The notes beneath the pieces are model-generated. The model was not told the origin of the DNA and searched no databases. It saw nothing but the letters and a program-made list of their open reading frames with translations. A stretch of 64,000 bases of DNA from Capsulimonadaceae bacterium (GTDB taxonomy: Bacteria > Armatimonadota > Armatimonadia > Armatimonadales > Capsulimonadaceae): contig OZ244065.1 of NCBI GenBank assembly GCA_965215505.1, positions 1,024,001 through 1,088,000 of the forward strand, in the 5' to 3' direction. Positions 2,327 through 44,400 of the stretch are shown in pieces. The position numbers and the translations under genes were made by a program. Each line of letters begins with the position of its first letter. The stretch's first letter is position 1.

Positions 2327-2471
2327 GGCATGAGCAGCATCGCCGCGTACAAAGCTCGGTCAAATGAGCGTATATGCGGCGGCATCTGCGATTAATATGC
2401 CGCTCACAAGCGTATAAAGAACCGGTCACGGATGACCCGATAAACATCCTGTGAATGGAAAGGTAGTACGA

Positions 2472-5132
2472 ATGACACTCACAAGGATTCTGCTCCGCTA
2501 CGTCCTGCCCCTGTTTACCCTCAGCCTCGTCGCTCTCTGCCAGAGGGCCCCCGCCGCCCCACTCGCCGACCGGGTGGCCGTGGCCGGGAACGCCCCCGCC
2601 GTGGCCGCCGCCAGGTCGGCGGGCCGCCTGTCTGGAACCACGCCGGTCAGCATCGCGCTCACCCTCCCCCTGCGGAACCAGGCCGCCTTGGAGGACCTGC
2701 TCGCCCGCCTCCACGACCCGTCCGACCCGGACTATGGGCACTATCTGACCCCGGCGCAGTTCGCCGCACGCTTCAGCCCGACCAAGGCCGACTACGAGGC
2801 CGTGGCCGCCTTCGCCCGCGCCCAGGGCCTGACCGTGACCGGGACCCACGCGAACCGGCTCCTGCTCGACGTTTCCGGCCCGGCGAGTTCGGTAGAAACC
2901 GCCTTCGCCGTCCGCCTGAACCGCTATCAGGCGGCGGATGGCCAGGAGTTCCGCGCGCCGGACGCCGCCCCGTCTGTGCCTCGCGCCCTGGCCGGGCGAC
3001 TGACGGGCGTCGCCGGCCTGAGCGACGCGGCCGTCCGACGTCCGCACAATGTCCGCCTGTCTGACGAGGCGGCCCTCCGGCCGGAGGTGTCCGGGCGTCC
3101 CGCCGCGGGCACCAGCCCCAGGGGTGGCCTGGCACCCACCGACATCAAGGCCGCCTATAACCTGAGCGGCGTCTCCCTCGACGGCACGGGCCAGACGCTC
3201 GCCCTGTTCGAGCTGGACGGCTACAATCCCACCGACATCAGCGCCTACGAGAGCCGCTTCGGCCTGCGGAGCGTCCCGCTCCAGAACGTCCTCCTGGACG
3301 GCGCTCCGGGCACGGCGGGGACGAACGCGGACGAGGTGACGCTCGACATTGAGCTGCAAATCGCACTCGCGCCAGGTGCGAGCAAAATCCTGGTCTACGA
3401 GACCGGCCCCACCGACGCCGATACCCTGGATGCCTACAGCCGGATCGCCGACGACGACCTGGCGAAGCAGATCAGCACCTCCTGGGGGCTGGATGAGCCA
3501 GACAGCGCCCCGAGTACGCTCCAGGCCGAAAACCCCATCTTCCAGCAGATGGCCGTCCAAGGTCAGACCATCTACGCCGCCTCGGGTGACAACGGGGCCT
3601 ACGACACCGGCAGCCGGGCGGACGGCGTGAGCGTGGATGATCCCGCCTCGCAGCCCTATGTCTGCGGGGTCGGCGGAACGACGCTGACGACGAGCGGGGC
3701 GGGCGGTGCCTACGCCTCTGAAACCACCTGGAACGGCGGGAGCGTCGCGAACGGCGCGGGCGGGGGCGGCATCAGCACGGTTTGGGCGACCCCGACCTGG
3801 CAGGAGTCGGCAGTCTCGGCGGCTTCAGGGGGGTCTACGACGATGCGGAACGTGCCGGACGTCTCACTGAACACGAATCCGAACACGGGCTATGCGATCT
3901 ATGTCGGGGGGGCGTGGCAGGTCTACGGCGGGACGAGCTGCGCCGCGCCGCTCTGGGCCGGGTTCACTGCTCTGGTCAACCAGCAGCGCACCGCCAACGG
4001 GTTATCATCACTCGGACAGGCAGCCCCCGTCCTCTATCCGCTCCTGGCCGGCGCGCGCTATGCCGCTGATTTCCACGACATCGCCAACGGCAGCACGAAC
4101 CTGTATTATCCGGCTGTGACGGGCTATGACGATGCTACCGGGCTGGGAACGCTCGACGGGGCCAACCTGCTGGCGGACCTCGTACCGGCCGCCACCGGTC
4201 GCACGCATCTGCTGTGGAACAACACCGACGGGCGCGTCATGCTGTGGAGCATCGCCCAGAACGGTTCCTTCACCCTCAACGGCTTCGGGCCGTACACCGA
4301 CGGTGCCCCCCAGAACCTCTGGCATGCCACCGCCGTCGCGACGGGACCGGACGGCAAGAGCCACCTGCTCTGGAACAACACGGACGGGCGCGTCATGCTC
4401 TGGACGGTAGATGACAGCGGCAGCTTCACCCTGGCGGGCTACGGCCCGTACACCGACAATGGCGCGAACAATCTGTGGAGCGCCACCGGGGTTTCGGTGG
4501 GTCCGGACAACGTCGTGCATCTGCTGTGGAACAACACCGACGGGCGCGTTATGCTGTGGAACGTCGCCCAGGACTTCAGCTTCACGATGGCGGGCTACGG
4601 GCCGTACACGGATAATGGGGCAAACAATCTCTGGTCGGCCACCGCCCTCGCCACAGGCTCCGACAACAAGACGCGCATCGTCTGGAATAACACCGACCAT
4701 CGTGTCATGCTGTGGAGCGTAGACAGCGGCTATAACTTCACCCTGGCCGGCTTCGGCCCTTACACCGACAACGCGCCGGGCAACACATGGTCAGCGGTGG
4801 GCGTGTCGGCGGGTCCGAGTGGCACGACCCATCTGCTTTGGTCCAACACAGACCGCCGCATGATGTTTTGGGATGTGGACAGCTCGTTCAACTTCACACT
4901 GGCAGGCTTCGGCCCCTACACAGACGGTTCTCCTGCGAACCTGTGGAACGCGGCGGCTCTGGCAACGGGGCCGGACGGACTGAGCCACGTCTTGTGGGGT
5001 AACACGGACGACCGGGCCATGCTGTGGGGGGTGGACAGCTCTTTCGACTTTACCGTCTCGGGCTACGGGCCATACACCGATAACGGCGCGAACAACCTGT
5101 GGAGCACCACCGCCGTCTCAGCGGGGCCATGA
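2472..5132 (+). CDS. Sedolisin/kumamolisin family (S53) serine protease with pro-domain and C-terminal six-repeat domain
   Basis: Signal peptide; pro-kumamolisin motif YGHYLTPAQFAARF; catalytic EVTLDIE, SGDNG, GGTSCAAPLWAG; GYDDATGLG. Start could be GTG 2451 or ATG 2472. Confidence 0.93.
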   Translation: MTLTRILLRYVLPLFTLSLVALCQRAPAAPLADRVAVAGNAPAVAAARSAGRLSGTTPVSIALTLPLRNQAALEDLLARLHDPSDPDYGHYLTPAQFAARFSPTKADYEAVAAFARAQGLTVTGTHANRLLLDVSGPASSVETAFAVRLNRYQAADGQEFRAPDAAPSVPRALAGRLTGVAGLSDAAVRRPHNVRLSDEAALRPEVSGRPAAGTSPRGGLAPTDIKAAYNLSGVSLDGTGQTLALFELDGYNPTDISAYESRFGLRSVPLQNVLLDGAPGTAGTNADEVTLDIELQIALAPGASKILVYETGPTDADTLDAYSRIADDDLAKQISTSWGLDEPDSAPSTLQAENPIFQQMAVQGQTIYAASGDNGAYDTGSRADGVSVDDPASQPYVCGVGGTTLTTSGAGGAYASETTWNGGSVANGAGGGGISTVWATPTWQESAVSAASGGSTTMRNVPDVSLNTNPNTGYAIYVGGAWQVYGGTSCAAPLWAGFTALVNQQRTANGLSSLGQAAPVLYPLLAGARYAADFHDIANGSTNLYYPAVTGYDDATGLGTLDGANLLADLVPAATGRTHLLWNNTDGRVMLWSIAQNGSFTLNGFGPYTDGAPQNLWHATAVATGPDGKSHLLWNNTDGRVMLWTVDDSGSFTLAGYGPYTDNGANNLWSATGVSVGPDNVVHLLWNNTDGRVMLWNVAQDFSFTMAGYGPYTDNGANNLWSATALATGSDNKTRIVWNNTDHRVMLWSVDSGYNFTLAGFGPYTDNAPGNTWSAVGVSAGPSGTTHLLWSNTDRRMMFWDVDSSFNFTLAGFGPYTDGSPANLWNAAALATGPDGLSHVLWGNTDDRAMLWGVDSSFDFTVSGYGPYTDNGANNLWSTTAVSAGP
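4203..5129 (+). repeat. Six tandem ~156-nt (52-aa) coding repeats, consensus xHLLWNNTDGRVMLWxVDxxxxFTLAGYGPYTDNGANNLWSATAxxxGP
   Basis: Counted directly in the translation of the S53 ORF. Confidence 0.92.
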
Positions 5133-11127: not shown

Positions 11128-11478
11128 ATGAACAAATCCGCGAAGACCGGCGGACTGCAAACCGAGTTCGACTTCACCCTGCCGCGCGGCTATGTGGACG
11201 ACGCGGGCACGCTGCATAAGCAGGGCAAGATGCGCCTGGCGACCGCCATGGACGAGATTGCCCCGCTGCGCGACCCGCGCGTGCGCGCCAACCAGGCCTA
11301 CCTGGTCATCATCCTGCTCACCCGCGTCATCACCGCGCTGGGCACGGTCGAGGCCATCGACACGAGCGTCGTCGAGAACTTCTTCTCGGCGGACCTGGGC
11401 TACCTCCAGGACTTCTACCGCAAGATCAACGAACTCACCCCCGAGGACGGCTCGGAGGATGCCGACTCGGGGGAATAG
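11128..11478 (+). CDS. Putative tail assembly chaperone (gpG-like)
   Basis: LQTEFDFTLPRGYVD, GKMRLATAMDEI, DPRVRAN, DLGYLQDFYRKIN; conserved CIS gene after the tube. Confidence 0.82.
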   Translation: MNKSAKTGGLQTEFDFTLPRGYVDDAGTLHKQGKMRLATAMDEIAPLRDPRVRANQAYLVIILLTRVITALGTVEAIDTSVVENFFSADLGYLQDFYRKINELTPEDGSEDADSGE

Positions 11479-11636
11479 TCCGCTACCCCTCGGACCGTCT
11501 GTACGAGGAGGTAGCCTACATCGCCTACCACTTCCACTGGCCGCTCGACCGGATCCTGGAACTGGAACACGCCGAGCGGCACAAGTGGATGGAGGAGATC
11601 AGCAAGATCAACAAGCGGCTCTCCGGGGGCGACTGA
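11469..11636 (+). CDS. DUF6760-like ORF without a start codon (gpT-like), probably reached by -1 frameshift; absent from the ORF track
   Basis: The -1 frame reads GGIVRYPSDRLYEEVAYIAYHFHWPLDRILELEHAERHKWMEEISKINKRLSGGD*. It overlaps GGGGGAA at the end of the upstream ORF. Confidence 0.82.
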   Translation, partial: GGIVRYPSDRLYEEVAYIAYHFHWPLDRILELEHAERHKWMEEISKINKRLSGGD

Positions 11637-11722
11637 CGAAACGCGGCAGCAGCCGCGCTCCCGTCGTCCCCTCTTTTCCTTTTATGGAATAATGTGGTTT
11701 GGTAATCTGATAGAGGAAGGAG

Positions 11723-14700
11723 GTGAAAGACAAAGTGAAGACACAGACTCTGATTGAACAAGCGGGCATTGGAGCGGCCGGGAGAAAAGCCAGTGCGTTC
11801 GCCCACGCGCTCGGGGCGCGTTATCACGCCTACACGCAGCACCTTGACTCGGAAACTTACCAAGACCCCGCCACCCATCAATCAAGAACCTATCAGGATG
11901 GCGATCTTACCGGGCCGTATTATCCTAAGTCTGGATACCACGGGCCGCAGTCCGTGTCGCCGTGGCAGACCCTCACGGGTGCCGGAACGGTCGTGTACGT
12001 CAATGGAATGAACAACAACCTGGCCGCGCATGTGGAAGCCGCACAGGCCACAGCAGACAAAGAGAAACACCCAGTCGTCGGGGTCTTCAATGCTACAGGC
12101 ATCACTAAAGCCACGAAGCTTGCGAGCGCCGTCCTCGGCAAGACTTGGAGTGGGCGCCTCGGGACCGGCTTGGGCCTTGCTGCGGACGCGGCCCAATGCC
12201 TTTCGGATGACGAAGGTGATTTTCTTAACAACCCGGCGATCACAACCCTGGTCGAAGTACTGAAACGCGGCTCAAACCGAAACATCGTCGCACATTCCCA
12301 GGGCACACTCATTGTCACCGCCGCGTTGAGGCGGCTAAAGGACAAGGACAGCAAAAAGCGTCGAGACTTCTCCGGCTACAACATTAAGTTCTTTGGCAGT
12401 CCCGCTTCCACGCGCATCGTCGGCCCGAACTACGTCGACGACACATCCAACAACGACGACGCCGTAGCCTCCTTCGCGATGGATGGCTTGTCGCTGCTCA
12501 GGAACACGCGCCGCTTGCCGAAACTGCTGCTGGCTCAGGTCGGCATTCACACCTCCGCCTTCGGTGATAATGAACTCAGCCGCTACAACAATCGCATCCT
12601 GACGCCGGACCGCGGGAAGTTTATCGGGCCGCACAACTACGAAAATTATGAGAACGCTTCCCCCACTTTCGACGAGTTGAGCAACGGCAGGGCGCACCTC
12701 CCGTCACACACGCCTAAGCTGGAGAAGACGACTTGGCCGGCGACGCTACGCGCCCTGACCGGCTATAACGCTTGGGGGCCTGCCGCCGCCCGCAAGGCGA
12801 CTAGTGTATCACGCTCCGTTCTCTCTGGAACACTTAATGCACGGAGGTGGATCGGTTCTCGCGCACACGCTTTGAAAGACTGGGCAGGTTCGAAGGCTCA
12901 TGCGGCCTTCAGTTGGTCACGAGATACAGCCCGCGCTGCTGGCAACCGGCTTGACGGTGAAGCCCACGACTCCGGCCAGTGGATGCTTCGGAACCGGGAA
13001 TGGATCGGCGATACCCTGCACGAAGCCTCCACAGTATTTGGTGTTCTCGCCGCAGTGTTGGGTGTTACCGCCCTGGCCATTCCTCCTACGGCACCGTTTC
13101 TGGTGCCGGCGGCTCTGACGTTCGGGGCGGCGGCCGCCGCCGCGCGGGCCTGGCACAGCACCAGCCTGGCGGTCGGGACGATTGACGGCAGCGTCCGCCC
13201 GGAGGCGGCGCTGAATGAGGCGAAGTGGGCGGCCGTGGACACGGCCCTGTCGGTCGCCACCGTCAGCGTCTCCAACGCCCGCTTCATCGCGAGGGCGACG
13301 ACCGTTCCTGGGATGAAGGCCGTCGCGCCGATGCTGAACAATCCGGCGAATACGGCCGTGACGCTCAACCACATCTTGCAGCAGACCAACAAGCTGTTCG
13401 GGCTGAAACTCGGCCTGATCCTGCGGAACCCGATGTTGGCTGCACGGCTCGGCTGGGTCAGCAAGGCCCTCGCCACGGCGAAGTTCGTGAAAAAATTGGT
13501 GGAGATGGGCACGTCCCGCCTCCTCCGCATCGCGCACGGTGTAGCGCACGGCATCGCGGGGGGGGCTAAGTCCGCCTGGAACTTTGCCAAGGATACGGGA
13601 ACTGGACTGCGGCATTGGGGCGAACAGAGAGCACATCAGGCCGGTGAGTTTTTCCATAACCTCAAGGAAAAGTACTACCCCTCGCCTAAGCACGACAATG
13701 CCTCGGGCAGCGCCGCGCAGGACATCGGGCAGTGCGCTACCGACAAGTTTGGCATTCTGGGAATGGGCATGCGCAACGCGGCCACCAACACACTGGCCGG
13801 GGTCATCGGACGGCATGGCAGCCCGACGGCCAAAAACAGCGAGCTGGACCTTCACGCCCATTCGCAGAGCGGCATGAGCGTCTCCGAGGCGTTCCATCCG
13901 CGGGACGGTATGAGCGTCTCCGAGGCGTTCCATCCGCAGGGCGGTATGAGCGTCTCCGAGGCGTTCCATCCGCAGGGCGGTATGAGCGTCTCCGAGGCGT
14001 TCCATCCGCGGGGCGGTATGAGCGTCTCCGAGGCGTTCCATCCGCGGGGCGGTATGAGCGTCTCCGAGGCGTTCCATCCGCGGGGCGGTATGAGCGTCTC
14101 CGAGGCGTTCCATCCGCGGGGCGGTATGAGCGTCTCCGAGGCGTTCCATCCGCGGGGCGGTATGAGCGTCTCCGAGGCGTTCCGGCAGTTGAAAGGCAAG
14201 AGGAAGGACGTGCGCGGGCCGGATGTCCCCACGTTCGGGAATGCCGCCTGGTCCCTGCCCACCCATCTGCTCGGCTACCATAACCATGCGTTCGGTTCCG
14301 GTGTCATTCCCACGCGCGGCGGCTCTACCGCGGGCATCGGGGCGCTCCTGCGGACACCATTTAATCAGTCAAATCCTTTGAACCCGTTCCTGGGCCTGCG
14401 AGGCATGGTTTCCACCCCAGATGCCCATTCGCGGGGCGGCATGAGCGTCTCCGAGGCGTTCCATCCGCAGGGCGGTATGAGCGTCTCCGAGGCGTTCCGG
14501 CAGTTGAAAGGCAAGAGGAAGGACGTGCGCGCGCTTCCTTTCCTGACCGGCCGGAAGCCGAACACTGTCTGGAGCGCACTGGATCGCGGGGTTCGCGGCG
14601 GCAGTAGCGGCTTGGAGCGTGGCCTGCGTGGAAGCGGCACGACTCTGGACACCGGCCTGCGCGGGAGGGGCCAGGACTTGGACACGGGCTGGCGCAACAG

Positions 14701-17700
14701 CGCCGCCGTCTATGGTTCCACCGCGCGCTTGGGCGGCGGGATGCTGGATCACCGCCTCAGCCGCAGCGGCTCCCGGGCCGTCAAGGCAGGGCGTTCCGGC
14801 GCGAACGCTGTGGATGACTCTTTCGATGCCGCCAAAGCCCTCCAACGCAGCGGGTATGGCGACCATCCTGACGTCAACCCCGCCGCCCTGCGCGCGGACC
14901 TCCGCAAGCAGAGCAGCGGCTTCCTCCCGGACGGCAATATCCGCGCCAGGCTCGGCGGACACCTCGGCTTCGACCCCGGCGGCGCGCGCCTGCACACCGG
15001 CCCCGCCGCCGCCGCCGCGTCCCGCCGCCTGAACGCCGAAGCCTTCACCATCGGCAACGATGTCTTCTTCGGCGAAGGCCGCTTCGACCCGCACACGCCC
15101 AAGGGCCTGGGCCTGATCGCCCACGAACTCACCCACGTCGGCCAGCAGACCGGCACGACCGGCAGCAAGGCCCGCTTCTTCAGCGAGGCGGGCGGCGACC
15201 AGATGGAGCGCGAGGCCCAGCAAACCGCAGAACACGTCCTCGCGAACGCCGGAAGCCGCAGCGGCCTATTCGTGGAAGACTACGTCCGCGAGTACGAGGG
15301 CGACGGCGGGCTGACCCAGGCCGACCAGTTGCGGCTGGACCGCATCTCGGTCATGGCGCTGGCCGAGGCGCAGCGGATGCTGGCGAGTCAGGGGATGCAC
15401 GGGAGCGTCAACGCGGACGCGCTGGACGTGGAGGTCGAGATTGACCTCGGCGAGATGAGCGACGGGGAAGCGGCACGGGCGTGGGCGGGAGTGATTGTGG
15501 CGGGTGTCAGTCAGAGCGCCCGGCCGGGTGGCACGTTCACGGAGCCATCGCGCCCACATCTCGCCCGAAAAGAGCTGGACTGGGACTGGAGCAGCACGGT
15601 CGCGCCGCAGGACTGGAAGTACTCCGACCGCATCATCTGGAATGACACGCCCGGTGGAGTCGCCGGAAGGCCGGACAACACGTTCATCAAGGCTGCGGTA
15701 TACAACACAAAAGCACTTGATCCCAGTCAGTATGCCACGATTGGACAGCGCAGCAACTATTACGAGGTCATGAGCAACATCATCCAGCAAAACCCGGCAT
15801 GCAAAGACGTGAAGTTCTTCGATGCGGCGGCCCAGGTCACCAATGCCCGGAGCGTGGGCGCCGTCGAGCATTTCTGGGGGAGCGGTTTCGGCAGCGGGCC
15901 GCTCGCGCTCCGCGGCCCGCAGGCGAAATCTATTTACACCGATGTCAATGCTGAACTATTCACGGCAAACATGGGTGTCATCAACAGCTTGCTATACCGA
16001 ACAAAAGTGCCGACAAGCCCACTCGTTCCCGGCTCGACCACCCCCATCTCTGCCACGGCATTTGATCTTGAGATGGTTGAAAAAGAGCAGGGAATTGTTG
16101 AGACTCACCTCGCAAAATACAAGGCCACATTCTCACCAAAGACGATCGCGGAAATCAACCGTGATCTGAACTATAAAGGGGTTTATCGTACCATCGGCGA
16201 GATCACGTTCTGGCCGCTTGGTGACGCGAAGGCAAGCTACTGGGCAAAAGCGGCTCTGGGTGTGGGCGACCTGGACTTTTTCAACCAGACGCACAGGATC
16301 GCCATCGGGAAGGCGAAGGTCTTCGGCCTGCACGGCCTGACCGAGAAAGACTACGCCGCTCACATTCATAGCGCCACCACGCCGTCGTCCGCAGGAGCGG
16401 CAAGTTTATCCACCGCCGGGACACCCGTTGTTCCGCCACAGCGCAGGGCGCTGTCAGGAGCGCCGGCCGATCCAGGCCGATCGGAACGCGCGGCGCAGGC
16501 TGTGGAAGCGCAGGCCACGGCGAGCGCGTTCGCCGACATGCCCTCACGTTCCCTGATGGCAACCCAGTTCGGCTTCCAGCCCTTGCGCTCCCAGGCTTAC
16601 GGCACACTCGAACGGGAGGCCGAACATGTGTCTGCCGCCGTGAGGAGCAACGAACCTCATGCCGCGCCCGCGCTTTCGGCCGCCCCATTGGGCATCCAGA
16701 ATTACGACACTTATGAGCATGTAAAGTTTGGCGGGGAGCCTGGGAACCAGCGGATGGTCACGATCAATGGCGTCGTGGTTTCCTATGGGGAGCTGATCTC
16801 CATGGGTGATTTCTTTGAGAACCCGGACCAGATTTACGACACCCCCCCGGCTCAACTCAAAGCGCTGGTGGAAATGATCCGGCGCCAGGTGGCCGATCCG
16901 AAATCCGTGACCGACAGTGACTGGGCTAAAGTCTCGCCGCGCTACCTCGACCTCGCGACCAAAAACGATGCCCATTTCGCGCCCTCTAATCCTTCGCTGG
17001 TGGCACCTGGCGGCAGCCCCGGCCCGGACCACCGCCAAACCTGGGAACGCCTGCACAAACAGGCGTTGGACCTGGCTCAGGATGGCCAGCCGGACCGGGC
17101 GCTGGCGACCAACGCATTCGGCGATCACTTCCTCACGGATGCGTTCGCGACAGGCCACCTGATCAACAAGGGGGATGTCATGGCAAGGTTCCGGTCCCGA
17201 TTCGCCGACTCGAACACGCGCGCGAGTTTCTTTAAGGCTGTGGCCCGGAACGTCTGGGCGGACTCCTCTGTCGCGGCCTACGTCTCACAGTATGAGACCG
17301 GCGAACCTTACATGCTGGGCTGGCACCCGAACATCGACAGTGCGAGCCGATTCTCCGAGTTCCTCAGTGAAGTTTACAAAGCCCAGCCGGACGTGATCGA
17401 CAACGCAGTGGTCAAAATTATCCATGACCGCCTGAATGACACGGTGGGCGGGCTGGAAGTGCATAACGCGGCGGGACAACTTTGGCATCTTTCCGGTGAC
17501 GACACTCTCAACAGCGAGAGTCTGGATATGGGGCGGCGCGCTGTGGATCAGTCGCAGAAAAACATCTTAGGCATCAATTCCAGTCGTGTTCCCTCGCCTG
17601 GAAGTAAAAATGGCAAGGGATACACGGGAGACCTACAGCCGTTGTACAAAAAGGTATGGAACTACTGTCCAATCCCGACCGATGCCAGCGTCAAGGCGAT

Positions 17701-17833
17701 CCATGATGTGATCGAGACAATGACAAACCCGAGTGCCCAGGAGACCATTGTGGCGGCCGGCGCTATGATTCGAGAAAAAATTCACACGATCATTGAAGAG
17801 GCTGTCCGGCTTAAGAAGCTACGCAAAGCCTAA
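11723..17833 (+). CDS. Multi-domain DUF4157 (eCIS core) effector: alpha/beta-hydrolase, hydrophobic segment, repeat-expanded hydrolase copy, DUF4157, unknown domain, Zn-dependent phospholipase C-like C-terminus
   Basis: YVNG...AHSQG...NDDAV...PHNY; AEAFTIGNDVFFGEGRFDP...LIAHELTHVGQQ...EREA; YEH...GDFF...NDAHF...NAFGDHFLTDAFATGH. The start may be GTG 11735 (better spacing from AGGAGG). Confidence 0.85.
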   Translation: MKDKVKTQTLIEQAGIGAAGRKASAFAHALGARYHAYTQHLDSETYQDPATHQSRTYQDGDLTGPYYPKSGYHGPQSVSPWQTLTGAGTVVYVNGMNNNLAAHVEAAQATADKEKHPVVGVFNATGITKATKLASAVLGKTWSGRLGTGLGLAADAAQCLSDDEGDFLNNPAITTLVEVLKRGSNRNIVAHSQGTLIVTAALRRLKDKDSKKRRDFSGYNIKFFGSPASTRIVGPNYVDDTSNNDDAVASFAMDGLSLLRNTRRLPKLLLAQVGIHTSAFGDNELSRYNNRILTPDRGKFIGPHNYENYENASPTFDELSNGRAHLPSHTPKLEKTTWPATLRALTGYNAWGPAAARKATSVSRSVLSGTLNARRWIGSRAHALKDWAGSKAHAAFSWSRDTARAAGNRLDGEAHDSGQWMLRNREWIGDTLHEASTVFGVLAAVLGVTALAIPPTAPFLVPAALTFGAAAAAARAWHSTSLAVGTIDGSVRPEAALNEAKWAAVDTALSVATVSVSNARFIARATTVPGMKAVAPMLNNPANTAVTLNHILQQTNKLFGLKLGLILRNPMLAARLGWVSKALATAKFVKKLVEMGTSRLLRIAHGVAHGIAGGAKSAWNFAKDTGTGLRHWGEQRAHQAGEFFHNLKEKYYPSPKHDNASGSAAQDIGQCATDKFGILGMGMRNAATNTLAGVIGRHGSPTAKNSELDLHAHSQSGMSVSEAFHPRDGMSVSEAFHPQGGMSVSEAFHPQGGMSVSEAFHPRGGMSVSEAFHPRGGMSVSEAFHPRGGMSVSEAFHPRGGMSVSEAFHPRGGMSVSEAFRQLKGKRKDVRGPDVPTFGNAAWSLPTHLLGYHNHAFGSGVIPTRGGSTAGIGALLRTPFNQSNPLNPFLGLRGMVSTPDAHSRGGMSVSEAFHPQGGMSVSEAFRQLKGKRKDVRALPFLTGRKPNTVWSALDRGVRGGSSGLERGLRGSGTTLDTGLRGRGQDLDTGWRNSAAVYGSTARLGGGMLDHRLSRSGSRAVKAGRSGANAVDDSFDAAKALQRSGYGDHPDVNPAALRADLRKQSSGFLPDGNIRARLGGHLGFDPGGARLHTGPAAAAASRRLNAEAFTIGNDVFFGEGRFDPHTPKGLGLIAHELTHVGQQTGTTGSKARFFSEAGGDQMEREAQQTAEHVLANAGSRSGLFVEDYVREYEGDGGLTQADQLRLDRISVMALAEAQRMLASQGMHGSVNADALDVEVEIDLGEMSDGEAARAWAGVIVAGVSQSARPGGTFTEPSRPHLARKELDWDWSSTVAPQDWKYSDRIIWNDTPGGVAGRPDNTFIKAAVYNTKALDPSQYATIGQRSNYYEVMSNIIQQNPACKDVKFFDAAAQVTNARSVGAVEHFWGSGFGSGPLALRGPQAKSIYTDVNAELFTANMGVINSLLYRTKVPTSPLVPGSTTPISATAFDLEMVEKEQGIVETHLAKYKATFSPKTIAEINRDLNYKGVYRTIGEITFWPLGDAKASYWAKAALGVGDLDFFNQTHRIAIGKAKVFGLHGLTEKDYAAHIHSATTPSSAGAASLSTAGTPVVPPQRRALSGAPADPGRSERAAQAVEAQATASAFADMPSRSLMATQFGFQPLRSQAYGTLEREAEHVSAAVRSNEPHAAPALSAAPLGIQNYDTYEHVKFGGEPGNQRMVTINGVVVSYGELISMGDFFENPDQIYDTPPAQLKALVEMIRRQVADPKSVTDSDWAKVSPRYLDLATKNDAHFAPSNPSLVAPGGSPGPDHRQTWERLHKQALDLAQDGQPDRALATNAFGDHFLTDAFATGHLINKGDVMARFRSRFADSNTRASFFKAVARNVWADSSVAAYVSQYETGEPYMLGWHPNIDSASRFSEFLSEVYKAQPDVIDNAVVKIIHDRLNDTVGGLEVHNAAGQLWHLSGDDTLNSESLDMGRRAVDQSQKNILGINSSRVPSPGSKNGKGYTGDLQPLYKKVWNYCPIPTDASVKAIHDVIETMTNPSAQETIVAAGAMIREKIHTIIEEAVRLKKLRKA
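13868..14185 (+). repeat. 36-bp coding tandem repeat x9 (GGMSVSEAFHP[R/Q])
   Basis: ATGAGCGTCTCCGAGGCGTTCC recurs at exactly 36-nt period from 13874 to 14162, with no spacers. Confidence 0.97.
14423..14531 (+). repeat. Second block of the 36-bp repeat (x2) plus duplicated flank RQLKGKRKDVR
   Basis: Units start at 14441 and 14477, followed by GGCAGTTGAAAGGCAAGAGGAAGGACGTGCGCG, identical to the sequence after the first array. Confidence 0.92.
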
Positions 17834-17936
17834 CCTTATACTCAGCCCGCTTGACAGACGCATGGCGCTGCCCGCCGGCCGACACGATCCCTCGTTAAGC
17901 GACAGATGCGTATCAGAAAAATGAAGTGAGGGAACC

Positions 17937-18254
17937 ATGCCGGTCAATATTCGCCGCCTGCGCTGCCGGGTGATGGTCAAGACGGGCGGGCGCGACGCGC
18001 CCGTGGCGCACCACTCCGAGGGGCCGAAGCGGCCTTCGCTGCACTTCGCATTGCCGGAGCCGGAGCCGCGCGCCGAGGCGGTCCCGCCGGAGCCGGCCAA
18101 TCCGGTGAGGGAGGAGCCGCAGGCGGTCACGCCGGGGCCGGAGCAGGAGGTCAGGAAGGCCGACCCGCGCGCGGTGGCCGACCGGGTTTATGAGCTGATG
18201 CGGCAGGAGATCGCCCTGAGCCGCCAGCGCGGCGGGAGCGGGCGGGGCGGGTAG
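17937..18254 (+). CDS. Small CIS-associated hypothetical protein
   Basis: MPVNIRRL N-terminus, Pro/Glu linker, C-terminal helix DPRAVADRVYELMRQEIALSRQRG; GAGGG RBS. Confidence 0.75.
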   Translation: MPVNIRRLRCRVMVKTGGRDAPVAHHSEGPKRPSLHFALPEPEPRAEAVPPEPANPVREEPQAVTPGPEQEVRKADPRAVADRVYELMRQEIALSRQRGGSGRGG

Positions 18255-37414: not shown

Positions 37415-40400
37415 ATGAAACTGCTGTTGCACCTGTGTCTCACCCTCCTCCTGGGCCTCGGATTCCTAGGCCCCGGACTGCGCGCCGTGACGGCACAGTC
37501 CGACCAGCCCATTCTGTTCCTCGACCCCGGCGGCCACACCGGCATCGTCCGCCAGGCCCTGTTCACGCCGGGCGGCAGGGAGCTGATCTCGGTCGGCGAG
37601 GACAAAGTCATCCGCGTCTGGGACACCCAGACCGGCAAACAACTGGGCACCATCCACGGCCAGATCGGGGAGGGGCCGCACGGCCAATTGTACGCGGCCG
37701 CCCTCAGCCGGGACGGCAAGACGCTGGCGGTGGCGGGCAACACCTATGAAGGCGCGTTGTCGAACGACTTCGACAAGAACCGCGTCTACATCCACCTGAT
37801 TCACCTGGAGGACCTGCACGCCCAGCCGATGCGCGTCTCCATGAGCCTTCTCCCCGCCGACGGCGCGGTCAAGGCGCACATGAGTACGATCTTCACCCTG
37901 GCCTTCTCGCCGACGGACAACACGCTCCTGGCGAGCGGCAGCCTGGACAACAACGTCTGCCTTTGGAACACGCACACGGGGAGTGTCATGAAGGTGCTGG
38001 AAGGGCATGAACGCGGCGTGGACGGCCTCGCGTGGTCGCCCGACGGCACCCACCTCGCCAGCGCCAGCCTGGACGGGACGGTGCGCGTGTGGAACGCCCG
38101 GTCCGGCAACGTGGAGAAGGAACTGAAACTCGACCACCTGGTCCGCTCGGTCGCCTGGTCGCCGGACGCCAAGATGATCGCGGCCGGCAGCAGCAGCGGC
38201 GTGATCGTTCTTTACCAGGCCGACGGCTACCGTAAGGTCGCCTCCTGGAGTCAGAGTCAGTCCGTCAGCAGCCTGGCTTTCAGCCCGGATGGTCAGTCCC
38301 TGGTCAGCGCTCAGGAGGGAGTGGGACCGCAGTACCCGGTCAAGATCTGGACCGTCCCTGGGGGACGCCCCACGGGGGCGTTCCAGGGACATACGGCGAA
38401 CGTGACGTCCCTCGCCTTCTCCGATGACGGCCGGCTCGTGGCCAGCGCCGGCGGCCGTGACAACGACGTCTACCTCTGGCAGTTGTCCGGCACCGGCCCC
38501 GTCCAGACCCTTCGCGGCAGCGGCGGGGCGACATCGGACGTCGCCTGGTCCCAGGAAACCGGGCCGGAGGGCAGAGTCATTTACCGGCTGTCCTGGAAGA
38601 CCCGGAATGCGGGCGGCACGGAGGACGAACACGTCTTCGACTTCTCGCAGGCGATGACAACCCGGAAGTCCAAGACGTGGCCCTGGCAGGGGCCTCTCAC
38701 GCACCTCCCCGATGGCCGGTCCTTGTCCCCGATCGACCCGCTCCAGCCGAGGCTCGCCGTGACGGTCGGTGGCGGTCAGGCCGTCTCCTTCCCACCGACG
38801 CCCGGCCCCACGGATTTCACGGCCCAGAGTGACTTCGTCCTCTGCGACACCTTCACGCCGGACGGTTCGGGGGTGCTGGTCGGCTCGCGGTTCTCGCTCG
38901 CCCTCTACAGCGCCTCCAGCGGCGCACTCCTCCGGAAGTTCGTCGGGCACAGCGGCCCGCTCCAGGCGGTCGCGGTGACGCCCGACGGCAAGTACCTGGC
39001 CTCGGCGTCCTCCGACCAGACGGTCGCCGTCTGGCCACTCGGGGGCAGCCGCGCCGAGGTCCCCTCCCCCCTCGTCCAGCTCTTCGCCGGCTCGGACAAC
39101 GAGTACGTCGCCTGGAACCCCGAGTACGGCTACTACGCCTGCTCGCCCGAAGGGGAGCGGCTGATCGGGTGGCAGACCAACAACGGCGAGGGCCGGCTGG
39201 CGGATTACGCCCCCGCGTCCAGTTTCGTCAACCGCAACCGCCCGGCCGTCATGCGGCTGATGCTGGACAAGGGCAGCGCCCTGGAAGCCATCGCGGCGGC
39301 GGGCAGCTCCCCGCAGAAGATCGAGCAGACGGCCCCGCGCGTCGATGTCCAGTCCGTGGACGGCGTCAGCCTCACGGCCGACCAGGCGAAGAGCGCCCGC
39401 TTCAAAGTGACCGTCACGGCACACGCGGGCGGCGCGCTCGAGAGCGTCAGCCTCTCGGTGAACGGGCACCAGAGGGCCGTGCGCCGCTTCGGCGGCGCGG
39501 ATCCGGACACCCGCGACTTCCAGCAGGTGGGGGACGGCTGGGTCGGCACCCTCGCCGTCAAGCTGCCGCCCGGCGCGGACACGGTCACGGCCCTCGCGAC
39601 CGGCGTGGACAAGGCGGAAAGCCCCCGCGCGGGCGTCGCCGTCACGACGCCCACGACTTCCGCCCTGCCGACGCTGAACCTCCTCGCCATCGGCATCGCC
39701 AAGTACGACCGGTTCCTGGACCTGAACTACCCGGACGCGGACGCGGTTTCCATCGCCAAAGCCTTCAAGGACCAGGAAGGGAAGCTGTTCAGCCGGGTGG
39801 ACGCGGTTTCCCTGACCAACGGCCAGGCGACCAAGGCCGGGATCGAGAAGGCGCTGGCGGACCTGAAGAGGCGCGGGCAGGCCCAGGACGAGAACGACTA
39901 CACCGTCGTCTTCGTCGCCGGGCACGGCGGCGACGTGGACGCCCAGAAGTACTACCTGATCCCGAGCGACGTGGACACGTCCACGGTCGAGGACGTCAAG
40001 CGAACGGCTGTGGAGTGGTCACACTTCGACGACGCCTTGCAGTCCATGCCGGGCAACGTCATCTTCCTGCTGGACGCCTGCCACTCGGCGGGCAAGGGCG
40101 GGAGCAACAACGCCGCCTACGCCGCCATCATGGCGCAGCTGGAACACCGGGTGGAGAACGGCTCCTCGCCCATCATCACCTTCGCCTCCTGCGAGGCCAG
40201 CGAAACCAGCCAGGAGGACCCGCAGTGGAAGCACGGGGCGTTCACCCTCGCCCTGCTGGACGGCCTTGCGGGGGCCGCCGACGAACGCCACAACGGCCGG
40301 GTGGATGCCCAGGAGCTGGAATACTTCATCCACAGCAGGGTCATCGCGCTGACGGGGGGCCAGCAGCATACGCAGGCCTTCGGCACCAACGTCACCGGCA

Positions 40401-40483
40401 GGCAGACCGCCCTGACGCTGGCGATCGTCGGCCCGGCCCGGACCGCAGCGGCCCCGGCCACGGACCGGCAGGCGCGTCGGTAG
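37415..40483 (+). CDS. Exported WD40-repeat protein with C-terminal caspase-family (C14) peptidase
   Basis: Signal peptide; many GH...AWSPDG...ASAS.D.TV.VW repeats; LLAIGIAKY, LNYPDADA, FVAGHG (His), LLDACHS (Cys), HGAFT. Confidence 0.92.
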   Translation: MKLLLHLCLTLLLGLGFLGPGLRAVTAQSDQPILFLDPGGHTGIVRQALFTPGGRELISVGEDKVIRVWDTQTGKQLGTIHGQIGEGPHGQLYAAALSRDGKTLAVAGNTYEGALSNDFDKNRVYIHLIHLEDLHAQPMRVSMSLLPADGAVKAHMSTIFTLAFSPTDNTLLASGSLDNNVCLWNTHTGSVMKVLEGHERGVDGLAWSPDGTHLASASLDGTVRVWNARSGNVEKELKLDHLVRSVAWSPDAKMIAAGSSSGVIVLYQADGYRKVASWSQSQSVSSLAFSPDGQSLVSAQEGVGPQYPVKIWTVPGGRPTGAFQGHTANVTSLAFSDDGRLVASAGGRDNDVYLWQLSGTGPVQTLRGSGGATSDVAWSQETGPEGRVIYRLSWKTRNAGGTEDEHVFDFSQAMTTRKSKTWPWQGPLTHLPDGRSLSPIDPLQPRLAVTVGGGQAVSFPPTPGPTDFTAQSDFVLCDTFTPDGSGVLVGSRFSLALYSASSGALLRKFVGHSGPLQAVAVTPDGKYLASASSDQTVAVWPLGGSRAEVPSPLVQLFAGSDNEYVAWNPEYGYYACSPEGERLIGWQTNNGEGRLADYAPASSFVNRNRPAVMRLMLDKGSALEAIAAAGSSPQKIEQTAPRVDVQSVDGVSLTADQAKSARFKVTVTAHAGGALESVSLSVNGHQRAVRRFGGADPDTRDFQQVGDGWVGTLAVKLPPGADTVTALATGVDKAESPRAGVAVTTPTTSALPTLNLLAIGIAKYDRFLDLNYPDADAVSIAKAFKDQEGKLFSRVDAVSLTNGQATKAGIEKALADLKRRGQAQDENDYTVVFVAGHGGDVDAQKYYLIPSDVDTSTVEDVKRTAVEWSHFDDALQSMPGNVIFLLDACHSAGKGGSNNAAYAAIMAQLEHRVENGSSPIITFASCEASETSQEDPQWKHGAFTLALLDGLAGAADERHNGRVDAQELEYFIHSRVIALTGGQQHTQAFGTNVTGRQTALTLAIVGPARTAAAPATDRQARR

Positions 40484-41415: not shown

Positions 41416-44400
41416 TCAGGGCGACGGGACCAGCAGGGTGCAGGGCTGATAGGCGAGGACCCAGTAGCCGAGATAGGGGTCCAGCGTGTTGATAGGAGCC
41501 GGTGGGGTGATGCTGGCAGGTGTGACCGGCAGATATGTCAATGTGTTTGGAGCTGCCTGCGTCACGCCGTATTTGTAGAACGTGAAGCTGAGGACCGCAT
41601 TGTCGCTGGCAGTTTTCAGATCGGTCGGTGTGCCACCGACCTGGACTCCCATGCTGGTAGTGATTGGCTGCACGAGAAGATCGTTCATTTTCACCGTCCC
41701 TGCGAAGGGGTTGCCTATCATGTTCCATCCAGGAGAGAGTGGAATGGAGAAGCGCCCGTTGACGTCCGTGGTCGCAGGCACGCCGCGCCGGCCCAGAGCG
41801 ACTTCCGCGCCCGTCGCGGGATCTGGGAAACGTCCCCAGTAGCCCTTTCCGATGACTAGTTTCTCCGCAGTGATTCCAGTGAGCAGGATGTAAGCCCCTC
41901 CGGTCGAGTTCCCGTTGCTGTCTTTCGCAGCGGGGTCCCAGACCGCTAACTTGATGCCACTGGAAACCAGACTGAAATCGGTGGGATTGAGGGATTCCAG
42001 CACGGCATCCGGGAAGAGCGGTACGCCCGTGGCTTTATCCACAAACACGGAGTAGTCGAAAGGCGTGGAGAGCATCTGCAACCCGCCACCGTAGTGGGCG
42101 GATACAACAGGCCCAAGCGGCGTGACGCGGGTGGATACCACAGGCCCAAGCGGCGTGACGGCGAATGTGGCCGTAGCGATTGAGGCGGCAGGGGCAGGAT
42201 TGTTCACCGTAATCGTCGCCGAGCTAGATATAGCGATCAAGGAAGTGCCTGGTATCGGGTCGCTGATCGCGTTTATTCCCCCTGGAACATTCACTGTGAT
42301 ATGAGCCGAATCAGTGACTATGGCAGCCAACGTCCTTATCAGACCGGCTTGGGTTGTGTAAGTGACCGTGCTGCCCGTAGTCGGGCTATTCGCATCCGTG
42401 GGCTGCACAAAGCCAGTGCCGGTGATGATGACGGATATGTCACCACTCCCGACAGGCACCGAGGCGGGGGCGAGGGTGAGGCCGCCCAGAGCCGGGTTAT
42501 TGACAGTGAACGAATTGCTTGCTACGGAAGAACCGCCGCCGGTCGCGGTCAGTTGATCGTTCGCACCCGCCTGGCTGATCTTCAGGTCGCTGAATGTGGC
42601 GATGCCAGCCGAACTCGTGTTTTGAGTCAATGTGCCACTCAATGTCCCGCCGCCCTTGGTTAAGGACAAAACAATCGGGATGCCGGCCAGCGTATTCCCG
42701 TTCGCGTCTGTCAGAAGCACGTTCACTGCCGGGTTGGCGTAGTTCCCCGCCGTGAACACGGTCGGCTGCACCGAGAAGCTGATCTTCGTGGTGGCGCTGG
42801 TAGTCACCTGGATCGGATTGCTCGGCGATGAACTGATAACGCTGTTAGTAGCGGTCACGAGGCTAGTAGCGGTCAGGAGGTAAGTGCCGACTTTATTGAT
42901 GTTCAGGCTACTAAAGGTTGCAACACCGCCGGTCGTCGTACCCGATGCTCCTGAGAGGATAGTCCCGGCAGCAGCGGCGGTGTTATCGGCGTTCGTGAGC
43001 GCCAGTGTGACTGTGGTGTTGTCCAGGGCAGGATTGCCTTCATTGTCCGTGACCTTGACCAGCACAGAAGGTGTGATGGGTGCCCCTGCGGCGAATGTGG
43101 CAGGTTTAGTAGGATCAGTGGTCGGCTGCTGGGTGATGGTTATCAGTTTGAGTATGCCGGTTGTGACGACCACCGGGGTACTCGGTGCCGAAGGGACAGC
43201 TCCGGCGGTGGCGGTCAGGACATAGGACCCGACTTTATTGATGCTCAGGAGGGCACTGTTCAGGCTGCTGAAGGTTGCCACGCCACCGACGGTACTGATG
43301 CCGGACGCTCCTGAGAGCCTGGTCCCAGCCGCAACGGAGGTGCCATCGGCGTTGGTGAGCGCCAGGGTGACTGGAGTGCCGTCCGGCGCGGGATTGCCCT
43401 GTCTATCTTTGACAGTCACCGTCAGGGAGAACAGGCTTGAGGGGTCTGCCGTCACCGAGGTCGGCGTCGGCCCGCCCGTGATGGCGACGCCAGAAACGGT
43501 GCCGGTGCCGACCGTCACCAGATCGCTGACCACAGGCGTCGCACCAGCGACTTTGACTTGCAGGGTGTATGAGCCGGCGATGTTGATGTTCAGGGCGCTG
43601 AAGTTCGCCGCGCCGCTCACCGTCTTAACACCAGATGCCCCGCTCAGGATGATGTTCATGTCGGCTATCGGCGTCACGCCATCAGCTTTCAGCAAAGCCA
43701 GTGTGACGGGTGTGCCGTCGGTGACCGGGTTGCCTTCGGCATCCTGGACCGTGACGCTCAGGGCGAACGTGCTGGCGGCGTCCGCCGTCACCGAAGTCGG
43801 CGTCGGCTGCTGCGTGATCGTAACATGGGGTGCGCCAGGGGTGATCGTGACCGAACTGCTCGGCCGTGCTGAGGTGATCGCACTAAGGCCGGTGCCGGTC
43901 TGCGCTGCCAGAACGTAGGTCCCGATCTTGTTGATGTTGAGTTTGCTGAACGCCGCCCTACCAGCGCTCGTAGTCGCTGAAGGTGCGATGGGGGCCGTGC
44001 CGGAGGCGTCTGTGAGGCTTGTTCCCGATGTCAGAGCAGAACCATCGGCATGGGACAGAACCGGTGTCACGGTCGTGCCATCAATGACGGGGTTGCCGTA
44101 GGCATCTGCGATGGCGATGCCAAGCGAGAACGTCCCGTCTGCGGACGTCGTGGATGGGTTAGGCCCGGTGAAGGCGAAACCGGCGGGTGCCGCCGGCCCA
44201 GGCCTTATGGTGATGCCGGCGTCGGAAGCCGTCTGACCGCCTCCAGTAGCTGTCAGTGTGTAAGGGTTGATGCTCGATGCGCTCGGGCTGGTTGTGTTGG
44301 CTTGTGTAATGCTCAGGTTGAATGTCACCGTTCCACTTGCGGGGGTGATCTGCGGATTCGCGCTGGTCGTGATGAACGGCACGGACGCTCCGGTGGAGTC

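Follow-up and report, generated by a model that had tools for sequence, protein, structure and literature searches.

The 64,000-nucleotide (nt) window analysed here (contig OZ244065.1 of the Capsulimonadaceae bacterium assembly GCA_965215505.1, positions 1,024,001 to 1,088,000) holds an operon for an extracellular contractile injection system (eCIS) and, within it, the giant gene P0001, whose product carries an eCIS_core domain and is the subject of this report. Read from its N-terminus, the protein comprises a serine hydrolase, a hydrophobic helical hairpin, the relic of a second hydrolase with 36-bp tandem repeats, a linker, the core with a conserved extension of ~125 amino acids (aa), and two cargo modules with an orphan leader-type motif between them (Table 1). 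A preliminary description of the locus had presented this open reading frame (ORF) as an eCIS_core protein of many domains, with candidate enzymes both before and after the core. Our analysis supports that layout: the frame is real, and the motifs named at the time all lie where they had been placed. The start codon is a GTG at 11723, with an alternative in-frame GTG at 11735; an AGGAGG at 11717-11722 is spaced more typically for the latter, and the start is therefore uncertain by four codons.

Table 1. Features of the P0001 locus in window coordinates and, within P0001, in residues (GC3, GC content at third codon positions; features away from the gene stand last)
Feature	Position (nt)	Strand	Residues	Description
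P0001	11723-17833	+		eCIS_core giant gene; 2036 codons, single open frame
Hydrolase 1	11873-12697	+	51-325	Intact alpha/beta serine hydrolase; Ser192, Asp246, His304
AHSQG	12290-12304	+	190-194	Motif in P0001
NDDAV		+	244-248	Motif in P0001
PHNY		+	303-306	Motif in P0001
Conserved region with hydrophobic helical hairpin	12740-13687	+	340-655	Kyte-Doolittle
Hydrophobic stretches	13016-13144		432-450 and 456-474	Kyte-Doolittle windows >1.4
Hydrolase 2 relic	13697-14398	+	659-892	Fragments at residues 659-725 and 809-892
36-bp tandem array 1	13858-14183	+		9.1 copies, 97% matches; 12-aa unit GGMSVSEAFHPR
36-bp array 2	14425-14498	+		2.1 copies, same 36-bp unit as array 1
33-bp linker repeat	14621-14689			2.1 copies, 81% matches; encodes GLRG-x-G-x-x-LDT-type units
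eCIS core and conserved ~125-aa extension	14900-15532	+	1060-1270	Pfam; includes HELTH
HELTH	15122-15136	+	1134-1138	HExxH motif
Cargo module 1 (mid)	15611-16357	+	~1297-1545	Recurrent, without Pfam family
Orphan leader-type motif	16607-16642	+	1629-1640	LEREAEHVSAAV; between the cargo modules
Cargo module 2	16703-17830	+	1661-2036	All-alpha; zinc phospholipase C/P1-nuclease-like predicted fold
ORF116	11128-11478	+		116 aa, tail-assembly-chaperone-like; PHROG 508 'tail assembly chaperone', E 9.4e-6; GC3 0.92
DUF6760 piece	11475-11636	+		53 codons, -1 frame; DUF6760, E 2.5e-16
ORF105	17937-18254	+		105 aa, between P0001 and the second tube gene; GC3 0.93
P0158	18866-23137			1423-aa ORF, extremely Pro/Ala/Ser-rich, directly before the tube initiator/LysM gene
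Pro-kumamolisin protein	2451-5132			893 aa
WD40-caspase protein	37415-40483			1022 aa
Big_1/MG2 protein	41416-46902	-		1828 aa

Domain layout of P0001

The eCIS_core domain (DUF4157, PF13699; residues 1071-1145) is the only Pfam domain above its cut-off in P0001, with an E-value of 3.3e-24 and 85.3 bits against a cut-off of 22. Score, an HExxH motif in the form of the HELTH noted in the preliminary description and location in an eCIS operon all place it in the family, and P0001 accounts for the only PF13699 match in the 6.18-Mb genome. It is compared here with P0002, its syntenic 1822-aa ortholog in the congener G018, with P0106 (2164 aa) and with the closer relatives P0154 and P0155. Core and extension together share 88% identity with P0154, 67% with P0002 and 60% with P0106. 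NCBIfam returned nothing meaningful on five segments of P0001.

The N-terminal domain, for which a lipase-like hydrolase with a Ser-Asp-His triad had been suggested, aligns with positions 2-243 of the 247 positions of the family hidden Markov model (HMM). The residues proposed at the time coincide with invariant columns: H191, S192, Q193, G194, D246 and H304 are the same in nine of nine homologous hydrolases, and the Asp and His of the triad are also retained in additional copies from the loci wherever the alignment extends to them. An AlphaFold2 (AF2) model built on a shallow alignment (predicted local distance difference test (pLDDT) 65, predicted template modelling score (pTM) 0.72) places a strand (138-142) and a helix (145-159) around Ser143, in the numbering of the segment, as expected of a nucleophile elbow. 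The best Foldseek hit of the model is 7wa8_A (E 2.6e-4), and every row listed is an alpha/beta hydrolase except one of unknown function. With the aligner VIA, the model reaches a Z-score of 11.9 to the hydrolase domain of Obc1 (5ikz_A; 214 residues aligned, root-mean-square deviation (rmsd) 4.3). Its Z-scores to cutinases are 9.2 (4oyl_A) and 8.3; a venom phospholipase A1 (PLA1; 4qnn_A) follows at 9.1, and both pancreatic lipase-related protein 2 and a Bacillus lipase at 8.4. Elbow, conserved acid and His in the sequence, and fold similarity support a lipase-like Ser-Asp-His hydrolase at the level of motif and predicted fold, outside the named Pfam families. A sequence search of the PDB with the profile of alignment A4 gave only phycocyanin (E 0.19), which we judged a chance match, and a DUF900 label (0.86) from the ESM Atlas for the N-terminus was kept as a lead and not used as evidence.

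The region that follows the hydrolase contains the hydrophobic segment already seen in the preliminary description, resolved here into two adjacent stretches (Table 1). The region as a whole is conserved (39% identity to P0154, 34% to P0106 and 33% to P0155), and PHROGs gave no match for residues 340-656, nor for P0001 or P0002 as a whole.

The second hydrolase, earlier described as degenerate, is a genuine relic that has lost the first third of the domain as well as the catalytic Asp and His. It retains only family HMM positions 73-133 and 121-198, positions 1-72 being missing; AHSQS forms the elbow, GSG stands in place of the Asp motif DSD, and nothing is left of the His part. The one intact hydrolase of P0002 is matched at 69% identity by residues 659-729 and at 60-63% by residues 809-905, and at only 30% by hydrolase 1. 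Array 1 is inserted exactly after the nucleophile motif of the relic, and the unit GGMSVSEAFHPR aligns to the helix after the nucleophile Ser in P0002 (AHSQGSIIVSEAIHQ); the 36-bp repeat is thus an expansion of the nucleophile-elbow helix inside the relic. The linker downstream, with a repeat of its own, is 46% identical to that of P0002. Two hydrolase copies are also found in the 2472-aa giant of an uncultured Chthonomonadaceae (L018:7724-15142), where decay has taken the opposite course: the copy at the N-terminus is partial and has diverged (HSDG), and the internal one is intact. P0154 and P0155 have the N-terminal copy only, and at the place of the P0001 relic P0155 carries a glucosaminidase (residues 694-817, N-terminal of the core). 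On the simplest reading of these sequences, a two-copy state arose, after which one copy became dispensable. The relic illustrates the decay of a catalytic domain to a spacer with repeats within a giant gene whose frame is still open.

Codon usage differs between segments of the gene. GC3 is 0.90 in the core and extension, 0.709 in hydrolase 1, 0.707 in the mid module, 0.711 in the junction and 0.705 in the C-terminal domain, which bears out the lower GC bias of the cargo noted previously. The structural genes of the operon have a mean GC3 of 0.914 (standard deviation 0.081, 5th percentile 0.822; 59 windows of 100 codons), against which both the cargo and hydrolase 1 are foreign-like. Because the N-terminal hydrolase copy is foreign-like in this respect, it may be the later arrival in P0001, an order of events that we infer.

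The repeats bear on the integrity of the frame. An identical 2036-aa form is recorded from a 6,177,771-bp contig, and a database variant from a 527-kb contig, P0004 (1895 aa), equals P0001 minus residues 776-916 plus one substitution, the deletion spanning array 1 into array 2. We aligned contigs from four runs of four studies to positions 11500-18000. Single contigs span 11591-13935 and 11609-13898; one contig with 20 differences, from another strain, spans 14486 to beyond 18000; and three of the four runs contain the unique inter-array sequence. As expected for short-read contigs, none in the four runs bridges either array. Two runs (X5 and X1) have no depth over 12368-13018, which is not evidence of absence. 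The layout flanking the arrays is hence independently supported against the assembly chimera that the preliminary description had named as a refutation; the number of repeat copies may differ from that in the window, and either the long or the short form may be the native one.

Cargo modules and the spread of the giant genes

Behind the extension lie two modules, neither of which has a Pfam family. An exhaustive search with residues 1240-2036, which covers both together, returned 799 proteins at E<=1e-3 and 243 at E<=1e-30. Among 150 listed representative hits, 11 match the mid module only and 138 the C-terminal domain only, and the two sets do not overlap. Pfam scans of 49 proteins, 47 of them from these hits together with P0002 and P0003 from related genomes, assigned neither module to a family. 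Of 36 proteins related to the C-terminal domain, 18 have eCIS_core upstream of it, as do 6 of the 11 related to the mid module; LysM is found in 14 of the 36 and phage lysozyme in two, and a single mid-module protein matches RHS weakly. The congener protein P0003 (587 aa) consists of eCIS_core together with the C-terminal domain only. Since the modules occur independently behind eCIS_core, LysM, lysozyme and RHS, both are recurrent payloads. A combined alignment of the two (A1) was dropped because it set eight mid-domain homologs wrongly against the C-terminal domain (12-14% identity), and separate alignments were built for the C-terminal domain (A2) and the mid module (A3).

The mid module, which the preliminary description had listed as an unrecognised domain of ~270 aa, proved to be discrete and recurrent, with 52 columns invariant across 11 sequences (A3), all of them kept in P0001. 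The A3 profile found only apolipoprotein A-IV in the PDB (E 0.94), again judged a chance match.

For module 2, the C-terminal domain, the AF2 model is confident (pLDDT 91.2, pTM 0.89) and predicts an all-alpha fold. In an all-against-all comparison (VIA wide), exactly six of 48,161 chains reach Z>=5, all of them zinc phospholipases C (PLCs) or P1/S1 nucleases, and the next row stands at 4.4: Clostridium alpha-toxin (1olp_A, Z 8.0), Bacillus cereus PLC (1ah7_A, 7.2), the SmNuc1 nuclease (8qjl_A, 7.0), Listeria PLC (8cqm_B, 6.8), a zinc bifunctional nuclease (3w52_A, 5.8) and S1 nuclease (5fb9_A, 5.7), with 139-155 residues aligned, rmsd 3.5-5.1 and 10-15% identity. The conserved residues of the module are kept in P0001 (E1665, H1666, D1696, H1751, H1778, H1802, D1806, H1812, H1901, D1902, D1926), and the spacing H1802-x3-D1806-x5-H1812 matches what we take to be the pattern of the zinc PLC/P1-S1 superfamily. 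Module 2 resembles that superfamily in its predicted all-alpha fold and in His, Asp and Glu residues numerous enough for a multi-zinc site; it differs in being larger (~375 aa) and in having no match at the sequence level. Pfam gave nothing at E<=1, and a PDB sequence search found no hits at E<=10 for the whole of P0001 or for the 41-sequence A2 profile, so that sequence does not place the module in the superfamily. The PLC-like domain of the preliminary description is accordingly a fair label for the fold, for which a nuclease is an equally possible function. ESM Atlas labels for the C-terminus ('Phospholipase C family' and 'Dot/Icm effector', 0.93) were again taken as leads only and not as evidence.

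Between the modules, where the preliminary description had placed a partial DUF4157-like tail, we found a motif match of 11 residues: BLAST of the core against residues 1540-1665 was non-significant (E 0.2), and a second, degenerate core domain is not claimed. The counterpart of the motif, EREAQQTAEHV, stands 28 residues past the HExxH of the core. Its class, E-[RQKA]-E-A-[DEQN]-x2-[AGSV]-x2-[VILM], occurs 31 times in 157 collected proteins compared with 0.25 times in shuffles. Eleven of the 31 occurrences follow shortly after an HExxH (at +28 residues in P0001, P0154 and P0155), and the other 20 have no HExxH within 80 residues upstream; most of these fall within the N-terminal ~160 residues of relatives that are shorter. 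The orphan LEREAEHVSAAV would fit capture of the last module together with part of its donor's leader; the similarity is too short for proof.

Relatives of the whole protein share its front and differ at its end. A word-index search among longer proteins yielded seven relatives of residues 51-335, all with PF13699; with hits of the exhaustive search these make nine giant database proteins of 1711-2164 aa, and all nine have a homologous hydrolase N-terminal of the core. In a pattern scan with one genome per species we located eight hydrolase loci: six in Armatimonadota, one on a G018 contig (whose record is labelled with an unrelated genus) and one in a Phycisphaeraceae, as a stand-alone 360-aa form. 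Six of the eight keep the order sheath, tube, gap, giant, second tube and long ORF, with giants of 1520-2472 aa, and in five of the six locus giants other than P0002 the hydrolase lies upstream of eCIS_core, the sixth being cut by a contig end. Of 300 further genomes sampled evenly across the phylum, four had a match, each within an open frame of 1158-2603 aa; among 40 relatives, four match any part of P0001 and only G018 matches the hydrolase region. Word-index searches at 'near' lengths found nothing for the N-terminal 386 aa or the mid module; relatives of both came up in the exhaustive and 'longer' searches, and these blanks therefore reflect the method. A second copy of the hydrolase or of the C-terminal domain was not found within the genome. 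In these searches the hydrolase-bearing family of giants is rare and patchy, with most of its members in Armatimonadota genomes.

Across the relatives length varies from 1520 to 2603 aa and the HExxH lies at residues 817-1364. P0002 shares P0001 residues 18-126, 659-900 and 916-1269 and then ends in an unrelated C-terminus, and P0106 carries the mid module and, behind it, a RelA_SpoT-like domain (residues 2020-2118) that falls just short of the Pfam cut-off. The family thus shows the shared N-terminal part and the alternative C-termini of polymorphic toxins; their other hallmark, a neighbouring immunity gene, is missing. The conserved part, or chassis, consists of the Ser-Asp-His hydrolase, the hydrophobic hairpin, the linker and the eCIS core with its extension, and the variable part starts just after the extension.

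The operon and the chaperone-like pair before P0001

P0001 is surrounded by eCIS structural genes, in the order Pvc16_N cap, sheath, 144-aa tube protein, P0001, gp19-type tube, 1423-aa ORF (P0158), CIS_tube/LysM, VgrG, gp25, Baseplate_J and P2_I. The 645 nt between the first tube gene and P0001 are occupied by two conserved coding frames. ORF116 is 70-83% identical across six related loci, and the DUF6760 piece, whose similarity to Phage_P2_GpE is weak and below the cut-off (E 0.026), lies in the -1 frame relative to the upstream ORF in seven of seven loci. In all seven, the conserved piece has no start codon upstream and the junction is G-rich and then runs into a stop, as GGGGGAA-TAG or, in L015, GGGAAAC-TGA. 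The DUF6760 piece is therefore probably a programmed -1 frameshift extension of the chaperone ORF, to judge from the arrangement of the frames. A further frame in the gap, ORF166 (11192-11692, 166 aa), was rejected as a gene: its GC3 is 0.55, and the conserved gap frames are the other two.

In tailed phages, tail assembly chaperones with a programmed -1 frameshift (lambda G/GT, P2 E/E+E') precede the tape measure gene. The pair described here is like them in combining a small ORF with a -1-frame extension between the tube and giant genes, across a G-rich, slippery-looking junction. It differs in that its frameshift is deduced from sequence and in that most junctions (GGGGGAA) are not the canonical X XXY YYZ heptamer, which L015 (G GGA AAC) does have. 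As P0001 lies directly downstream of these apparently frameshifted chaperone genes, it occupies the slot of a phage tape measure. Our literature searches found no mention of DUF6760, and those combining contractile injection, tail assembly chaperone and frameshift led to unrelated papers only.

Downstream, ORF105 has no family match in Pfam or PHROGs and was found by tblastn at the same position in five of six loci with differing cargo. Being conserved whatever the cargo, it is not a cargo-specific immunity gene. P0158, likewise without a family match (PHROGs included), has counterparts of 883-1289 aa that take the corresponding place in related loci; at its C-terminal end stands a short, basic, helix-like segment similar to the end of ORF105.

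Farther away, just upstream of the eCIS genes, lies the gene for an 893-aa sedolisin-type peptidase, recognised by its pro-kumamolisin activation domain. Downstream of the baseplate genes, a 1022-aa WD40-repeat protein with a C-terminal caspase domain (Peptidase_C14) is encoded. The minus strand codes for an 1828-aa protein whose Big_1 and MG2 domains are invasin/macroglobulin-like (Table 1).

Interpretation and comparison with known systems

We read P0001 as a giant eCIS cargo in the tape-measure slot that joins a conserved chassis to a swappable C-terminal array, and put the probability of this reading at roughly 0.6. In such a protein, the core region would tie P0001 to the complex of spike and tube initiator, and the whole would be loaded in or with the tube. 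On firing, hairpin and serine hydrolase would act on the target envelope, and the C-terminal modules would act as toxins on phospholipid or nucleic acid. In this gene the resident internal hydrolase copy has decayed into a spacer, and the foreign-like N-terminal copy is intact. What the analysis shows directly is which domains are present, as judged by motif and fold, how they are conserved, the synteny, the relic and the contrast in codon usage; loading, delivery, substrates and order of action are steps that we infer from the domain layout and its parallels.

Several observations weigh against this reading. P0001, P0002 and P0106 have no match to tape-measure families in Pfam or PHROGs, and P0158 may be the real length ruler or a second lumen protein. 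On the side of the enzymes, the hydrolase 1 model is only moderately confident as a whole and has a pLDDT below 50 in the His region; the serine-esterase family DUF676 of Pfam scores 17.2 bits around AHSQG, short of its cut-off of 20.3, and five further relatives match DUF676 or DUF900 at E 0.047-0.17, all below the cut-off, so that six of the nine giants have such a weak match. The Z-scores of module 2 do not exceed 8, values for which the tool warns that in helical models they can reflect a common arrangement, and Foldseek gave it no row at E<=1e-3, zinc PLCs recurring among the weak rows. Published work assigns the loading of eCIS cargo to an AAA+ ATPase of the Afp15/Pvc15 type, and none was present in Pfam scans of 46 different ORFs or pieces from the window, a search that extended neither to ORFs that are small or unlisted nor to other parts of the genome. 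Lastly, no cargo-linked immunity gene was found adjacent to P0001, although one elsewhere in the genome is possible; many eCIS toxins are described as lacking an immunity gene (PMC8213781).

A bolder form of the preferred reading treats P0001 as a hybrid protein in which the core is an internal anchor, possibly also a cleavage point, between a conserved, catalytically active, membrane-breaching head, made of serine hydrolase and hairpin, and a swappable train of toxins. We offer this tentatively, as an idea with an appreciable chance that is still more probably wrong than right. If true, folded enzymes would travel both before and behind the core, unlike the current picture of a disordered leader, a DUF4157 domain and one toxin. 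As a bolder corollary, the relic with its 12-aa repeat could be a length-variable spacer; gain or loss of repeats, such as the 9 copies and the 141-aa deletion of the two assemblies, would then tune how long the loaded protein or the tube is.

On the rival proposal that follows the preliminary description, P0001 would be an exceptional polyvalent toxin, assembled by serial capture of membrane-attacking warheads on both sides of the core and released by self-cleavage at the HExxH. Enzyme-like domains do flank the core on both sides and the HExxH is intact, and at the C-terminus serial capture agrees with the independent modules, the cargo swap in P0002, the GC3 and the orphan motif. The N-terminus is where the proposal loses ground: hydrolase 1 has the GC3 of cargo, and the glucosaminidase of P0155 indicates that this side can vary too, but the hydrolase is present in every examined giant relative that reaches the core, which makes it part of the chassis and not an occasional capture. 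A membrane-attacking role is plausible, though the predicted fold of module 2 fits nucleases as well as PLCs, and release by the HExxH sits poorly with reports that DUF4157 is dispensable for loading and its motif unneeded for Cgo1 toxicity (sources below). We consider this proposal unlikely, though far from negligible.

P0001 might also be primarily structural, a tape measure or lumen scaffold whose enzymes serve envelope penetration in the manner of phage tape measures with lytic motifs. Its position right after the apparently frameshifted chaperone pair speaks for this idea; hairpin and long linkers, the peptidoglycan glucosaminidase that P0155 has in the corresponding region and the repeat-mediated, in-frame length variation between two assemblies are in keeping with it. 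A ruler is hard to reconcile with relatives of 1520-2603 aa that have unrelated C-termini, and the RHS, LysM and lysozyme contexts of the C-terminal modules are typical of toxins; together with the absence of tape-measure homology and the presence of P0158 as another candidate ruler, this leaves the structural explanation a slim chance. It is very improbable that the long ORF arose as a chimera of the assembly, or that it is a pseudogene in decay, with its parts joined at the 36-bp repeats. In favour of this, short-read contigs do not bridge the arrays, a database form lacks 141 residues between them and one internal domain has clearly decayed; against it, independent assemblies cover 11591-13935 and 14486-18000+ as single pieces with the inter-array segment in three of four runs, the frame stays open for 2036 codons with the invariant residues of hydrolase 1, mid module and C-terminal domain kept, six loci carry syntenic giants of the same layout, and the L018 giant has two hydrolase copies as well.

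The analysis also defines two widespread cargo modules without a Pfam family, one of which has several hundred relatives and a predicted zinc PLC/nuclease-like fold. It adds a hydrolase family specific to the lineage and, within an eCIS operon, a pair of chaperone genes that appears to be frameshifted. Literature searches found nothing on Armatimonadetes and contractile injection and, judged by title, nothing on eCIS architecture for DUF4157 with lipase; the supplementary figures of PMC8213781 and PMC11126660 may show similar cases.

In the published descriptions, eCIS cargo starts with a disordered leader, may have a DUF4157 domain at or close to the N-terminus, and ends in one C-terminal toxin (PMC8213781, PMC11297309, PMC11126660, preprint 10.64898/2026.05.27.728243). 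N-terminal leaders direct loading into the tube lumen, and DUF4157 is dispensable for the loading of Cgo1 and Cgo2 (same preprint); the toxicity of Cgo1 is independent of the metalloprotease motif (as cited in PMC11297309). DUF4157 proteins have been found to bind proteins of the spike complex (PMC13277306).

The nearest parallel is Tme, the tape-measure-related effector of the Streptomyces davawensis contractile injection system (CIS; BN159_7576), which co-purifies with spike and tube-initiator proteins and has a C-terminal nuclease and transmembrane helices (PMC11126660). Both are very long DUF4157 proteins encoded in the structural operon (2247 aa for Tme, 2036 aa for P0001), and they have in common long linkers, segments that are hydrophobic or transmembrane, and a C-terminal effector domain of enzymatic type for which exchangeability has been proposed (PMC11126660). 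Unlike Tme, P0001 has its core in the centre (1071-1145), with a folded serine hydrolase and hairpin before it and two cargo modules after it, and a small gene, the second tube gene and the 1423-aa ORF separate the giant from the tube initiator. P0001 has the length of the Tme-like group but lies outside it as defined in PMC11126660 because its DUF4157 is not N-terminal.

The hydrolase, too, has a precedent among eCIS-associated toxins (EATs): EAT17 is a PGAP1-like alpha/beta hydrolase (PMC11297309). Hydrolase 1 shares with EAT17 and with lipase-, cutinase- and PLA1-type hydrolases the predicted alpha/beta fold and the Ser-Asp-His triad with an HSQG elbow; it differs from the EAT17 type in lying N-terminal of the core and in being conserved in the lineage instead of forming a variable C-terminal toxin. 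With the classical DUF4157 EATs (PMC8213781, PMC11297309) and with Cgo1 and Cgo2 of AlgoCIS, P0001 has in common a core with HExxH followed by a variable C-terminal toxin domain, as well as long linkers, LysM in relatives and the frequent lack of an immunity gene. What sets it apart from them are ~1070 residues with a conserved catalytic domain before the core and a gene in the middle of the operon. eCIS particles are under engineering as protein-delivery devices, and if P0001 is indeed loaded and delivered, its layout would widen the design rule and offer natural fusion points for multiple payloads.

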